DNA from: Chitinivibrionales bacterium
GTDB lineage: Bacteria > Fibrobacterota > Chitinivibrionia > Chitinivibrionales > WJKA01
Length of the DNA stretch: 64,000 bases
Assembly (NCBI GenBank): GCA_038247415.1
Contig: JBBRUX010000003.1
Coordinates: 32,001 to 96,000 of the forward strand
Direction of reading: 5' to 3'
A program made the translations under genes and the position numbers. A model generated the notes under the pieces. The model had not been told where the DNA came from, ran no database searches, and worked only from the letters and a program-made list of their open reading frames with translations. Positions 55,973-60,472 of this stretch are shown here, piece by piece (within the stretch, counting starts at the first letter, position 1; every line of letters starts with the position of its first letter).

Positions 55973-57751
55973 TTAGGCCGGAGGCACAATATCTTGCCTT
56001 GTGCACAATGCCCGGTACTGTTCGCAGGTATAGTAGATTTCTGCGTGGCTTCCGGCTGCAATGCTTGTGCCTTTTTCTAGATATACTATGGTGTCGCATT
56101 CGAGTACCGTAGAAAGCCTGTGGGCAATGATAACTGCAGTTCGTCCTTGAAAAAGCTTTTTCATGGTTGTCTGAATCTTTTTTTCTGTAATGCTATCAAG
56201 GGCAGATGTTGCTTCGTCAAACAGTACGATGGGAGGATTTTTGAGAAAAACGCGAGCAATAGAAAGTCTTTGGCGCTGCCCACCCGAAAGTCTTACTCCT
56301 CGCTCTCCCAGTACCGTGTCAAGACCTTGAGCCATTTCATTAACAAAGGTGAGTGCCATGGCATTTTCGAGGGCTTGTGATATTTCTTCATCGGTCGCAT
56401 CCGATTTGGCAATGAGCATATTTTCGCGAACGCTTCCGCTGAGGATGGTTGTATCCTGCATCACAAAACCAACCTGTTCTCGGAGGCTCTGTTGGGCAAT
56501 ATCGAGAATATCAACCCCGTCAAGCAGCACCTGCCCCGATTGAGGCTTCATGAAGCGCAAGAGCATATGGGCAATGGTCGATTTGCCTGCACCACTTTCG
56601 CCAACGATTGCAACACTCGTGTGAGGCTTTATGGTTAGCGAAAAATTCGAGAGCACAATTTTAGTTGGGTCTGCGGGGTATGCAAAGAGCACATTTTTAA
56701 AGGATATCGATCCTGTTAAATCAAACGATTGTGCACGCGGCCTATCTTCGATAAGCGGGGTTTGTTTAAAAAATTCTATGATGCGATCGAAGCTTGCGAA
56801 GGAGGAAAAAACTTGTGCCAATTGACTCAGAACATTTGCTGCATGCCATGACGAAGATCTCCAGTAGGTAAAAAAGGCGACAAGCGTTGCAACAGTAAAT
56901 TTGGGCCCAATAAGCAATGCCCCCAGTGCGAGCATGAACAGGGGGCCAATTAAGGTAATAAAGGTATTGATGGTATCGCTATAATAGATGCCCACTCGTT
57001 TACTGCGCAGTGTTTTTTTTAGAAACGAGTCACACAGTTCTCGTATCGAGGCAGAGAAACGTTCTTCCTGTGCAAACGATTGAATAAGGGTCATCGATGA
57101 AATGTTTTCGGTCATACGCGCGTTTACTTTGCCAAGATCATCGCGAGCTTGTCGGTTAAGAGAACGCATAAAGGGAAATATGCGTAAAGAAATGAGGAGG
57201 AGTATAAGCAGCACCCCTCCATAGAGCGCAAGCATAGTAGTATTAAGAAATCCCATGATAATAACCGAGGTTGTAAGAAGGCTAAGAACCCAAAACATAT
57301 ACTGAAATTGACTATACAGTTCCATAACACCGGTCATAGTATCGTTTGTTAATCGTGAGGTAATTTCTCCCACATGGGTGCGTTGATAAAAATCGAGATC
57401 TAATCGCTGCAGATGTGCATACAGTTCGGTTTGGATAGATACCATGGTCTTGGCTCCAATAACCTGCCAGAGGGTATGCTGTGTTACGGCAATTGCATAA
57501 AAAACAATAACTACAGCCATGCCAACACACGAAAAGGGAAGAAGCTCCCGGTGTACAAAGGCCACAGGATCTTTAAGCAATCTGTCAACAACATAGCCAA
57601 GCATCCCTGGTACAATGCCTTGAATAATGCCATCGAGCGAAAGAAGAAAAACATGAAGAGGAATTAGTTTTCGGGTTGGTCCTGCATATTTCCAGAAAGT
57701 CGATACTATTTCGGCAATCTTGGCTTGACGCGGTAAGGTTTGTGTTTTCAT
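55973..57751 (-). CDS. ABC transporter, fused permease/ATPase (exporter type)
   Basis: TM domain plus GESGAGKST, LSGGQRQR, DEATSALD, IAHRLST. Confidence 0.95.
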   Translation of the reverse strand: MKTQTLPRQAKIAEIVSTFWKYAGPTRKLIPLHVFLLSLDGIIQGIVPGMLGYVVDRLLKDPVAFVHRELLPFSCVGMAVVIVFYAIAVTQHTLWQVIGAKTMVSIQTELYAHLQRLDLDFYQRTHVGEITSRLTNDTMTGVMELYSQFQYMFWVLSLLTTSVIIMGFLNTTMLALYGGVLLILLLISLRIFPFMRSLNRQARDDLGKVNARMTENISSMTLIQSFAQEERFSASIRELCDSFLKKTLRSKRVGIYYSDTINTFITLIGPLFMLALGALLIGPKFTVATLVAFFTYWRSSSWHAANVLSQLAQVFSSFASFDRIIEFFKQTPLIEDRPRAQSFDLTGSISFKNVLFAYPADPTKIVLSNFSLTIKPHTSVAIVGESGAGKSTIAHMLLRFMKPQSGQVLLDGVDILDIAQQSLREQVGFVMQDTTILSGSVRENMLIAKSDATDEEISQALENAMALTFVNEMAQGLDTVLGERGVRLSGGQRQRLSIARVFLKNPPIVLFDEATSALDSITEKKIQTTMKKLFQGRTAVIIAHRLSTVLECDTIVYLEKGTSIAAGSHAEIYYTCEQYRALCTRQDIVPPA

Positions 57752-57778
57752 AGGTTACACAGGTGTCCTTGAATTAAA

Positions 57779-57824
57779 CAAAAAAACCTTGAATGCGACT
57801 GAAATCAGGCAACATTCAAGGTTT
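57779..57824 (-). terminator. Terminator beyond the distal att copy (probable original tRNA-Pro terminator)
   Basis: AAACCTTGAATG...CATTCAAGGTTT with an A run on the + strand. Confidence 0.7.
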
Positions 57825-57834
57825 AGATAAATCG

Positions 57835-57888
57835 AAAGAATCGGGGTGACTGGATTTGAACCAGCGGCCACTTGAACCCCATTCAAGT
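57835..57888 (-). repeat. att-like direct repeat: 3' part of tRNA-Pro (54 bp)
   Basis: AAAGAATCGGGGTGACTGGATTTGAACCAGCGGCCACTTGAACCCCATTCAAGT, identical to 59766-59819. Confidence 0.95.
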
Positions 57889-57954
57889 CTCATAATTTAA
57901 AATAGTTGTTTTCTTTTGGGAATTGCAAGAAACAGAGATGGGCATTTTGTTAGC

Positions 57955-58517
57955 TTAATTCTGTCGCCCATCATCCCGTGCAAGATAGCGGACAATACAG
58001 GAGTTGAAAAGAAGCCAAGAAAGAGAGCCCATTCGTGCAGTAACTGTTACCTGCTGAGAATTAAATAGGCACGATTTGTGAATGGAACATTGATGGGTAA
58101 GATCAAGAATGAATCCTGATGTGAATGATCGCACCAAGGGGGTAAGTAGAATTTTTTGAAACTGTTGTAACGCCTCAAACCGTCGATAACAGAAGCAGGA
58201 ACGTCTTTGTCTAGCTCAATCAGAGGTGATACGTGGGAGTATTCCAAGTCATGTCTATCTCGATCCAGATCACAGGTATTTCCTATAATGATCCATTGAG
58301 CACATTCTCCGTCTATCGTAGAAATATCTCCTTCAGAATCAATCACAGGAAAAGGTGACCGAAATTGCACGACATCGCCTTGGCATAATGCAACATCTGG
58401 GAGTGTATCGTCAGAGTAGAAAATCCTAAATATACTTTGAGTCGATATGAGGTCTTTTATTTGGGTCGTCAATGTATCAAAATCGTACGTGGGAGGCCAC
58501 CCACGAGAAGTGGTCAT
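57955..58517 (-). pseudogene. Third gene of the TIGR04255 module, apparently frameshifted near 58115-58140
   Basis: N-part LCQGDVV...WIIIGNTCDL...FYLPPW; the -1 frame continues GFILDLTHQCSIHK...RYLARDDGRQN. Confidence 0.65.
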
Positions 58518-58936
58518 GACATTTTCTTATAGGGATTGATAAAGAGTTTCTTAGTTTTAACTTCTCTGCCCGCAAAGTGCGAATCAATGGCCTTATCAAC
58601 TTCGGCATCCACAGGAAGAAATGCCCTTCTCTGGATGAATTGAAGCCCTTGGAACAGCGGGGTAGAAAAGTCGTCGACAGAACAAACTTCGCTGAGATTC
58701 ATTGGAACGAGATTTGATTCCGCAGAGGAGAGTGTTAAACTTGAAGTGTTCTTGATGCCCATAAACCCTCCGCCACTTGAAAAATGTACAGCTGTCGAAT
58801 AGAGAGGTTCTGTTTCGGCAGCATAGGTTGTAGATGGTGACAATGCGATACCGCTTAATACTACCATGGCGGCAGCAAGAGGGAAGCGGTTTTGAAAAGG
58901 ACCTTTGTCAACTGATGAATACGTCGGGGATTCCAT
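58514..58936 (-). CDS. Hypothetical protein, middle gene of the TIGR04255 module
   Basis: 140 aa; starts 1 nt after the upstream stop and overlaps the next gene by ATGA. Confidence 0.75.
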   Translation of the reverse strand: MESPTYSSVDKGPFQNRFPLAAAMVVLSGIALSPSTTYAAETEPLYSTAVHFSSGGGFMGIKNTSSLTLSSAESNLVPMNLSEVCSVDDFSTPLFQGLQFIQRRAFLPVDAEVDKAIDSHFAGREVKTKKLFINPYKKMS

Positions 58937-58937
58937 C

Positions 58938-59666
58938 TTAATACTCCGGATTGAGCGTATCGATAAATTCCTGTTTTAATAATGAAAAGAATAATTCCTT
59001 CTCACGAGAATGGCATTCGTCAATCAATTCGAATAGACCAGAAAATGAAAACCCGGCGGTAGACTCGAAAAATGTATCTGAATCAAGCACTGACCCAGTT
59101 TTTTGAGCCCCTTGTATCGTAGCTTGGGAATTATTCGCAATCTGAATGTTAGTCAGGAATTTACCGTATTCGACTACCGACCGATAGATTCGTTGCTTAG
59201 AAGGAAGAGGTTTCTTGTCAACAATAATATCAGGCATGGTAAATGTGACGTTATCGAAAATGTCATTTTCGAAGAAATCAATGTATCGAATACCTATGCG
59301 AGTAAACTTGGAAACAATCTCGACTTTATTAAGTTTATCGAGGATGTCTTTGAGCTTAAGTAAAAATTTATCCCATCCGACATACTCGCCAACATTAGAG
59401 AGAGAAACCACTCGCGGCCCTATCCTTAAAACAAAGGATGATGACACGCCTTGATAATGTGGAGAAAATTTTAAGTTTGGGTCATGGTTGCGCAGTGGCT
59501 CAGGAACATCAGCAACAGGCAACCGTTGAAATTGCGGGTATTCGGTTTTGACTGCTGAGAAGATAATACCAAAAATGGCATCTGGCTGAATCGCGCTATC
59601 AAAGCGGAGTTCGACGACAGAGTCTATTATTGGGCAAAGAGCAATTCTTTTTGGTAAGCGCATCAT
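58938..59666 (-). CDS. TIGR04255 family protein
   Basis: PIIDSVVELRF, YVGWDKF, RIGIRYID, LDSD, KELFFSLL motifs; start could be 59684, 59666 or 59663. Confidence 0.85.
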   Translation of the reverse strand: MMRLPKRIALCPIIDSVVELRFDSAIQPDAIFGIIFSAVKTEYPQFQRLPVADVPEPLRNHDPNLKFSPHYQGVSSSFVLRIGPRVVSLSNVGEYVGWDKFLLKLKDILDKLNKVEIVSKFTRIGIRYIDFFENDIFDNVTFTMPDIIVDKKPLPSKQRIYRSVVEYGKFLTNIQIANNSQATIQGAQKTGSVLDSDTFFESTAGFSFSGLFELIDECHSREKELFFSLLKQEFIDTLNPEY

Positions 59667-59771
59667 ACTTTTAAAATATAGCATATGTTTCAGTTTAACA
59701 CTAAAACAATTTACTCGTTAAAAAAAGCCCTCAAAAATGCATTTTTTTACATTTCTGAAGGCAATAAAGAA

Positions 59772-59845
59772 TCGGGGTGACTGGATTTGAACCAGCGGCC
59801 ACTTGAACCCCATTCAAGTGCGCTACCAGACTGCGCTACACCCCG
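59772..59845 (-). tRNA. tRNA-Pro(GGG)
   Basis: Reverse complement CGGGGTGTAGCGCAGTCTGGTAGCGCA-CTTGA-ATGGGGT-TCAAG...GGTTCAAATCCAGTCACCCCGA. Confidence 0.96.
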
Positions 59846-59902
59846 AGGCTAATAAAATAATTAATTTTTTAAGCGAGCGCTATTGAATTTGAAATTATAG
59901 AG

Positions 59903-60472
59903 CTAGATTGATGATTGAATTATTGCGGCAGAATCTAGGTGCGCCATACTCATCTGGCATCCACAATAATTTTGCCGATATATGGCATATTCCTTGCAAA
60001 GCCCCAGACTTTCTAAAAAGCCATTCTTTTTTTTAAGATCAACATCGAGATACTGTATGGTATAGGCATAAGACGCTTTTGAGGCTGATGCACGAATCAT
60101 AGAAATGCTTTTATGGGGGCTTACCGATAGCACGGTTCCAAAGTGGGAAAAATTATTTTTTTTTGCATAGTCGGCAGCAGTTTCAAGGCGGAGGTCGATG
60201 CAGACCTCACAGCGTGCCCCTTTTTCTGGCTCATTTTCCAGTCCCTTAATTTTTTGAATGAAGAAGTCGGTGTTGTAATTTCCCTCTGTAAATGGTATTG
60301 AGAGCAGTTGCGCTATTCGCTGCGCTTCATCGCGCCTTTTAAGGTATTCGCTTGTGGGGAAAATGTTAGGATTGTAAAAGAAGATTGTTATATCCCAATC
60401 GCAGCGTAATCGCATGATGCCCACAATTTCGTCGGGCGCACAGCAGCTATGAAGAAGAAGTTTAGGAGACAT
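59903..60472 (-). CDS. queH: Epoxyqueuosine reductase QueH
   Basis: LLLHSCCAP, FYNPNI, EPEKGARC..C, SPHK, YRQNYCGC. Confidence 0.93.
   Translation of the reverse strand: MSPKLLLHSCCAPDEIVGIMRLRCDWDITIFFYNPNIFPTSEYLKRRDEAQRIAQLLSIPFTEGNYNTDFFIQKIKGLENEPEKGARCEVCIDLRLETAADYAKKNNFSHFGTVLSVSPHKSISMIRASASKASYAYTIQYLDVDLKKKNGFLESLGLCKEYAIYRQNYCGCQMSMAHLDSAAIIQSSI

Follow-up and report, generated by a model that had tools for sequence, protein, structure and literature searches.

A frameshifted three-gene TIGR04255 cassette on a tRNA-Pro islet of a Chitinivibrionales bacterium, a candidate modular toxin-antitoxin or defence cassette

Closest described systems and cassette architecture

The toxin-antitoxin-chaperone (TAC) systems, typified by HigB-HigA-SecB and CmdTAC, are described as modules of a toxin, its cognate partner and an accessory protein that is common to modules bearing different toxins, some of which are anti-phage (PMC5105189; PMC6377645; PMC11618068; bioRxiv 10.1101/2024.02.24.581848). 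The hyperpromiscuous networks of Panacea (PanA) are portrayed as combinations of one conserved family with many unrelated toxins, accompanied by partner swapping (PMC8832971; PMC10440598). These are the nearest described concepts for the locus treated here, a cassette of three translationally coupled minus-strand open reading frames (ORFs) headed by a gene of the TIGR04255 family. The cassette lies in a 64,000-nt stretch of contig JBBRUX010000003.1 (contig C3 of the 3.84-Mb assembly GCA_038247415.1) from a Chitinivibrionales bacterium; this whole stretch is termed the window, and coordinates are positions within it. On balance, it is probably a decayed copy of a widespread cassette type that is modular, consists of three parts, employs an effector of MazF fold and acts in toxin-antitoxin control or in defence. 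Its three genes are as follows.

58938-59666, minus strand: gene 1, TIGR04255 family, 242 aa by the database gene call; first gene of the cassette
58514-58936, minus strand: gene 2, 140 aa, putative cognate neutraliser of gene 3
57955-58517, minus strand: gene 3, frameshifted, predicted member of a new MazF/CcdB-fold family; its 5' ORF occupies 58047-58517 (156 aa)

A single base separates the stop codon of gene 1 from the start of gene 2, and genes 2 and 3 overlap in an ATGA. An upstream ATG at 59684 gives gene 1 a longer ORF (58938-59684; 248 aa).

Like the TAC systems, the cassette is three-part and its accessory protein is shared over different effectors. It departs from them in that the accessory is a TIGR04255 protein, with no SecB match by sequence or among the fold matches listed, and in that no chaperone-addiction element was identified in gene 2. 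The gene order differs as well, the accessory chaperone being encoded last in TAC systems whereas the TIGR04255 gene stands first in the cassette. The likeness to PanA lies in the use of one constant family that is shuffled among varied effectors, but PanA is the antitoxin of two-gene pairs, while TIGR04255 is an additional third gene beside a middle gene that varies with the effector. The type III toxin-antitoxin and abortive-infection toxins of ToxIN, AbiQ and CptIN are neutralised by a repeated RNA, whereas the partners encoded in the cassette are proteins; the region 57500-60100 contains no tandem array and, besides a 54-nt repeat pair described below, only short, mostly two-copy repeats of a chance type. 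Read as a three-part toxin or defence cassette, the locus is distinguished by the uncharacterised hallmark protein TIGR04255 and by the new effector family.

Co-occurrence and modularity of the three genes

A scan of one genome per species located gene 3 in four more records, namely a Riflebacteria metagenome-assembled genome (MAG), an unclassified MAG and two Myxococcales MAGs, and in each of them gene 3 is directly preceded by a TIGR04255 gene and a middle gene of about 90-140 aa, joined by overlaps or few-base gaps. The same layout is found in G258, a genome of the window's phylum, and in four further genomes, which belong to a sample of 401 taken in the phylum of locus L008. The order TIGR04255, middle gene and gene 3 is thus present at all ten close gene 3 loci with enough flank to be assessed (the window, L005, L006, L007, L008, L009 and L056-L059; L061 ends too early to judge), which span at least three phyla, and all 12 of the upstream proteins tested score above the TIGR04255 cut-off. 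The proposal in the initial annotation of the window that the three genes form one module is well served by this co-occurrence. In addition, each of the three window proteins has its closest relative listed with one contig of 2,169 nt, which suggests one more complete cassette.

The distribution of gene 3 is sporadic. Its profile matched five of 296 genomes of the window's phylum, two of them strongly (G000 and G258), the three weak matches being diverged third genes that adjoin TIGR04255 genes, and seven of the 401 sampled genomes of the L008 phylum. No gene 3 was found among the six remaining genomes of the window's family.

Considered from the side of gene 1, TIGR04255 gave 28 matches in 24 of the 296 genomes of the window's phylum and none in 14 well-known control genomes. 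Three of these 28 loci are cut by contig ends and were left out of the count; at the assessable loci, 25 of 25, the TIGR04255 gene is followed by two coupled downstream genes, with stops and starts that mostly overlap. The middle genes encode proteins of 97-237 aa and the third genes proteins of 90-274 aa, the latter belonging to the following classes.

Close MazF-like: 2 loci
Second MazF-like subtype: 4 loci; homologous (hhalign probability 96.6, E 6.3e-10, 147 columns)
Third MazF-like subtype, about 255-270 aa: 8 loci; N-terminal half probably homologous (hhalign probability 84.9, E 6.4e-6)
Arg/His type (both residues invariant), about 140-180 aa: 7 loci
HNH nuclease: 1 locus
GNAT acetyltransferase: 1 locus
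Unclassified: 2 loci

The three MazF-like subtypes, accounting for 14 of the 25 loci, have in common a Q-G-[DA] where the barrel begins and an [NHQ]-x-C-D preceded by a hydrophobic run. The middle proteins vary with the class of the third gene, and those that accompany the third MazF-like subtype give helix-turn-helix matches that are sub-threshold. As a separate observation, third genes of 90 and 129 aa (L038:1736-2005 and L053:3532-3921, respectively) encode a common helix motif of Arg, Tyr-Tyr and His, which may resemble that of HEPN-type RNases.

Comparison of individual cassettes points to reassortment of their parts. Gene 1 of the window is 42% identical to its counterpart in genome G007 (E 9e-81), where gene 3 is barely alike (E 6e-4); with G258, gene 1 is barely alike (E 0.01) and gene 3 is 38% identical (E 8e-45). 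Judged from these sequences, genes 1 and 3 are exchanged between cassettes. The middle protein of G258 bears the C-terminal motif of the window type, and gene 2 therefore follows gene 3 and not gene 1. The locus first noticed in the window is accordingly one member of a general family of TIGR04255 cassettes with interchangeable second and third genes.

Protein families, folds and proposed mechanism

Gene 3 changes frame near codon 134 by a one-base frameshift. The conserved C-terminal 53 residues are encoded in the other frame (57958-58116), which is closed by a stop codon at 57955-57957. Its close relatives, two intact proteins of 187 aa each that are 68% and 65% identical to it, bring the same conclusion as the initial annotation, in which gene 3 was described as a frameshifted gene of about 187 aa. 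Contigs of run X3, a second sample of the same study, span the frameshift site with zero differences and no gap, and the frameshift is therefore a feature of the population and not an assembly slip. The resulting 156-aa product is without its last third, comprising the last strands and a C-terminal helix. This helix carries four (W168, R177, R181 and R185) of the six residues that are invariant in the family, the others being G47 and C82, and with the loss of the last third and of these four residues, the window toxin is most likely dead.

An exhaustive profile search of 1.84 billion representatives recovered 175 clusters of the gene 3 family at E<=1e-3 and 144 at E<=1e-10, mostly of about 185 aa. 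By sequence, the window protein has no match in Pfam (E<=1), NCBIfam, PADLOC or the PDB, and the family profile matched no PDB chain. Among 103 family members scanned, none has a convincing Pfam domain and none matches the Pfam family PemK_toxin at E<=0.1. The sole long match to the family, P0153 (1,142 aa), was considered as a clue to a fusion and was taken as spurious, being a type IX secretion surface protein of repetitive sequence in which C-Q-G-D strings recur.

An AlphaFold2 model of an intact relative was built on the family alignment with a predicted local distance difference test score (pLDDT) of 91.4 and a predicted template modelling score of 0.87. In a Foldseek search of the PDB, all the matches listed for this model are MazF-type toxins or mRNA interferases (best E 1.1e-3, probability 1.0), at identities of 7-17% to the matched chains. 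The match covers the whole toxin domain and stands clear of unrelated folds, which places the model in the MazF/CcdB class of SH3-like barrels; an extra N-terminal region of about 40 residues contains a helix. Of the earlier suggestion that gene 3 resembles PemK/MazF nucleases, then, the fold is upheld and membership of the PemK family is not. As modelled, gene 3 represents an undescribed family with the predicted toxin fold of MazF, Kid and CcdB.

In common with the type II toxin-antitoxin systems of the MazF/PemK/Kid endoribonucleases and of CcdB, a small, overlapping and antitoxin-like gene is located upstream of gene 3. MazF-type toxins start with G-D-[IV], a pattern that gene 3 may echo in the Q-G-D at the start of the barrel, with its hydrophobic residues and N-x-C-D. 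The differences from these systems are the want of a PemK Pfam match, the helix-bearing N-terminal extension, the Arg-rich conserved C-terminal helix, the want of a MazE, Kis or CcdA domain in gene 2, and a third conserved gene that is always present.

Fragments of gene 3 were observed at other loci. A C-terminal remnant in G007 (G007:C1:27311-27451; L011:1450-1640) corresponds to profile positions 134-183 (E 1.4e-9) and contains two stop codons; it is located in an intergenic gap with unrelated genes on either side, and G007 has an intact TIGR04255 cassette on another contig. The remnant is probably all that is left of a cassette that was lost. In a genome of the sample drawn around L008, an intact gene 3 is closely followed by a fragmentary second copy of its core, which covers profile positions 56-87 (L056:2297-2395; also L063).

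Gene 2 belongs to no family of NCBIfam, Pfam or PADLOC. Its relatives are few, and their N-terminal part is variable, while a C-terminal motif of about 50 residues, consisting of L-P-V-D, acidic residues and then I-D-x-x-F, is conserved. Residues 18-35, approximately, form a hydrophobic stretch (window 58820-58880). Hydrophobic stretches of about 15 residues are also seen at the N-terminus of the middle genes of L032, L037, L041, L042, L043 and L052, sometimes followed by an Ala-x-Ala-like site, mainly where gene 1 is of the window subtype. Such a stretch could be an export signal, a membrane anchor, a docking peptide or a handle recognised by gene 1. Complex prediction for a metagenomic cognate trio, with gene 3 entered twice beside gene 1 and with gene 2 scored as partner, returned 0.68, 0.65 and 0.66, compared with 0.00 and 0.01 for unrelated partners in place of gene 2 and 0.59 for an unrelated protein in place of gene 1, scores that by the rule of the tool count neither for nor against binding.

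Gene 1 matches the NCBIfam model TIGR04255 over positions 5-252 of 252 with 129 bits against a cut-off of 30 (E 2.5e-37), and its membership of this family, as first annotated, is secure. It has no match in Pfam, nor in PADLOC at E<=1, and it resembles the unannotated phage family phrog_5464 (5.6e-25). An ESM Atlas look-up gave only clusters named "TIGR04255 family" and "hypothetical protein". The protein of about 240 aa is predicted to adopt a two-lobed α/β fold (model pLDDT 96.1), for which fold searches gave weak-to-middling matches to TBP, Mediator Med18/20, AdoMetDC and guanidino kinases, with viral TBP-like proteins matching at low template modelling scores. The idea that gene 1 is a SecB-like chaperone found no echo: by sequence there is no match to the SecB family, and SecB is absent from the matches listed in four fold searches of the model, lists that a distant likeness could escape. 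Residues R127, D195 and H219 are invariant, and E19, R21, R59, D62, R123, D197 and K223 are nearly so; these charged residues look more like a binding or catalytic surface than that of a general chaperone.

In the proposed mechanism, gene 3 would be the effector and would bring growth to a halt through an attack on RNA or on some other target in the range of this fold class. Its cognate neutraliser would be gene 2, holding it through the conserved C-terminal motif. Gene 1, the shared third member, would decide on the release of the effector, either by sensing a trigger (phage infection, for example) or by regulating how stable or active gene 2 is. In the window copy, genes 1 and 2 are intact and gene 3 is most likely dead by frameshift; as its effector is broken, this copy is probably inert.

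Two other roles for gene 1 deserve consideration, neither of them likely. It may be an enzyme that binds a nucleotide on its open sheet and that chemically modifies gene 2 or gene 3 or makes a signal; the cassette would then resemble toxin-antitoxin systems whose toxin is turned off or on by an enzyme, and would not depend on a sensor or chaperone. The many conserved charged residues, including the three invariant ones, would suit such an enzyme, but Mediator Med18/20, AdoMetDC and TBP score about as well as the guanidino kinases, and the sequence matches no kinase. With a similarly low probability, genes 2 and 3 may constitute an ordinary two-part toxin-antitoxin system in which gene 1 has no sensing or neutralising role and is a DNA-binding regulator, repressing the promoter by means of a TBP-like saddle. 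The presence of TBP and viral TBP-like proteins among the fold matches, the invariable position of gene 1 at the head of the operon and the tracking of gene 2 with the type of gene 3, not of gene 1, are all compatible with this role; it is difficult to reconcile with the retention of gene 1 even where the middle protein itself has helix-turn-helix matches.

The tRNA-Pro islet, genomic contexts and significance

The window cassette is enclosed by a duplication of the 3' end of a tRNA gene, with the following features.

59771-59846, minus strand: intact tRNA-Pro(GGG) at the edge of the insert, identified by ARAGORN
59766-59819, unstranded: right copy of a 54-nt direct repeat, made up of the 3' 49 nt of the tRNA and 5 nt past the tRNA end
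57835-57888, unstranded: left copy of this direct repeat, a partial duplicate of the tRNA at the distal border of the insert
59727-59762, minus strand: terminator-like hairpin followed by a T run, in the interval of the tRNA and gene 1 and just within the insert; a consensus match only, from a pattern scan

The repeat copies are 100% identical at an offset of 1,931 nt, and the 54-mer, with up to three mismatches allowed, occurs exactly twice in the assembly. A direct repeat of the tRNA 3' end thus borders the insert on both sides, as at a tRNA island, and the 1,877 nt separating the copies hold the three cassette genes as their sole content, in keeping with the initial description of three coupled genes as the only cargo within a tRNA duplication. 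The G+C content of the insert (0.39-0.44) is similar to that of the flanks, with no contrast, and a promoter scan gave a site count no higher than in shuffled sequence. A second hairpin with a T run, seen by eye and not in the scan listing, is present just past the left repeat copy (57781-57824) and may be the original terminator of tRNA-Pro.

No integrase is encoded between the repeats, and the three tyrosine-recombinase matches in the assembly are on contigs C1, C4 and C24, none being on the window contig. Integrase-less, att-flanked islets at tRNA genes are cis-mobilisable elements, and the window insert resembles them in its perfect duplication of a tRNA 3' end around a short, recombinase-free cargo; it differs in that its mobility is putative. 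The islet fits either a relic left by the loss or excision of an adjacent integrase-bearing element, or a small element moved in trans.

Run X3 provides contigs in which the island is present, and one 303-nt contig (depth 4.2) that links 57834 to 59766 over a single repeat copy and omits the 1,931 nt; the depth of this run is zero across 59017-59218. Logan contigs are assembled from 31-nt words, and patchy cover of the junctions could create an island-free path. Since these words are shorter than the 54-nt repeat, the island-free contig is not counted as evidence of excision; it is not decisive and may stem from a true subpopulation without the island or, as an artefact, from the short assembly words. 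In genomes G002 and G004, tRNA-Pro adjoins the same TPR gene as in the window, and in G004 also the same QueH gene. The far side of the tRNA is different in every genome, and consequently there is no clean empty site for comparison. The other cassette loci scanned hold no tRNA gene, which makes the tRNA islet particular to the window.

Elsewhere, cassettes are found in surroundings of the defence type. At L042 (G173:C29), the cassette is inserted between hsdS (Methylase_S, 1.1e-28) and hsdR (HSDR_N, 5.3e-35) of a type I restriction-modification system. Other neighbours include HsdS (L006 and L009), a DNA methylase (L045), an SNF2 helicase (L038), a YgjP-like peptidase (L024), Uma2 together with DUF488 (L005) and RhuM (L009). 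Cassettes also occur in temperate phages; TIGR04255 genes appear in five phage records, and gene 3 has a PHROGs match at 3.3e-5. In the P2-like Pseudomonas phage Dobby, the cassette adjoins the portal gene and its third gene is diverged but MazF-like (A4 profile, E 1.8e-5), and Sulfurimonas phage SNW-1 has a cassette with a different third gene. In the record of Dobby (MK034952.1; L052:1108-1854), the TIGR04255 match extends over 1108-1848 and the annotated coding sequence only over 1483-1854, and the start of this gene is probably mis-called in the deposited annotation. The three window proteins matched 0 families of PADLOC-DB v2.0.0 at E<=1.

The reading of the cassette as a conflict module is favoured by its combination of constant and variable genes, by third genes of toxin type, by the way gene 2 pairs with gene 3, by the shuffling and by the neighbourhoods. 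Within this reading we infer that gene 3 is toxic, that gene 2 neutralises it, that gene 1 plays its proposed part and that the cassette functions in defence. That the cassette is no conflict system at all, and performs a housekeeping or regulatory RNA-processing task to which islands and phages are incidental, is highly improbable: the inferential standing of toxicity and defence and the lack of a PADLOC match would allow it, but it runs counter to the sporadic spread (TIGR04255 in 24/296 genomes; the gene 3 profile in 5/296 and 7/401), the absence of TIGR04255 from the control genomes, the modular shuffling, the toxin-type third genes including HNH and GNAT, and the occurrence of cassettes inside restriction-modification operons and prophages.

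Several points weigh against a conflict module with a MazF-fold effector. Gene 3 is tied to toxins by its fold and not by a PemK/MazF match at the level of sequence, and a shared fold is not a shown activity, since CcdB has the same fold and poisons gyrase in place of cleaving RNA. A tblastn search of the phage and plasmid collections found no close relative of gene 3; likewise, a pattern scan of IMG/VR and a scan of JGI metagenome contigs with N-terminal patterns only found no close relative. Gene 2 has no known antitoxin domain, whether of the MazE, Kis or CcdA type, and an export or membrane signal, which its hydrophobic stretch could be, would not fit a cytoplasmic antitoxin. The predicted fold of gene 1 gives no clear function, and the broken window copy cannot itself show one. 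A full-text literature search, which did not cover supplementary tables, where a listing is possible, found no paper under the family names, and no experiment on a cassette member came to light.

A broader proposal, put forward tentatively and at somewhat less than even confidence, is that TIGR04255 is the hallmark of a large class of conflict systems, so far undescribed, that are modular and built of three parts. In them a conserved two-lobed sensor or regulator would preside over interchangeable neutraliser-effector pairs, the effectors comprising a new MazF-fold superfamily of three subtypes, HNH, GNAT and the Arg/His type. These systems would spread among restriction-modification operons, prophage cargo sites and tRNA islets in many phyla, and their mechanism would be unprecedented and possibly nucleotide-dependent, given the faint likeness of gene 1 to guanidino kinases.

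For the genome of the window itself the message is a modest one, that of a decaying relic on a minimal tRNA islet. For the family, if the reading as a conflict module holds, "TIGR04255 family protein", for long a bare label of annotation pipelines, would give access to an entire class of toxin or defence cassettes with three parts, in which any TIGR04255 gene would predict two downstream partners and so yield a catalogue of new effector families. A deep and unrecognised branch would be added to the MazF/CcdB fold class, and the cassettes would offer a clean system for learning how one conserved component governs many unrelated toxins.

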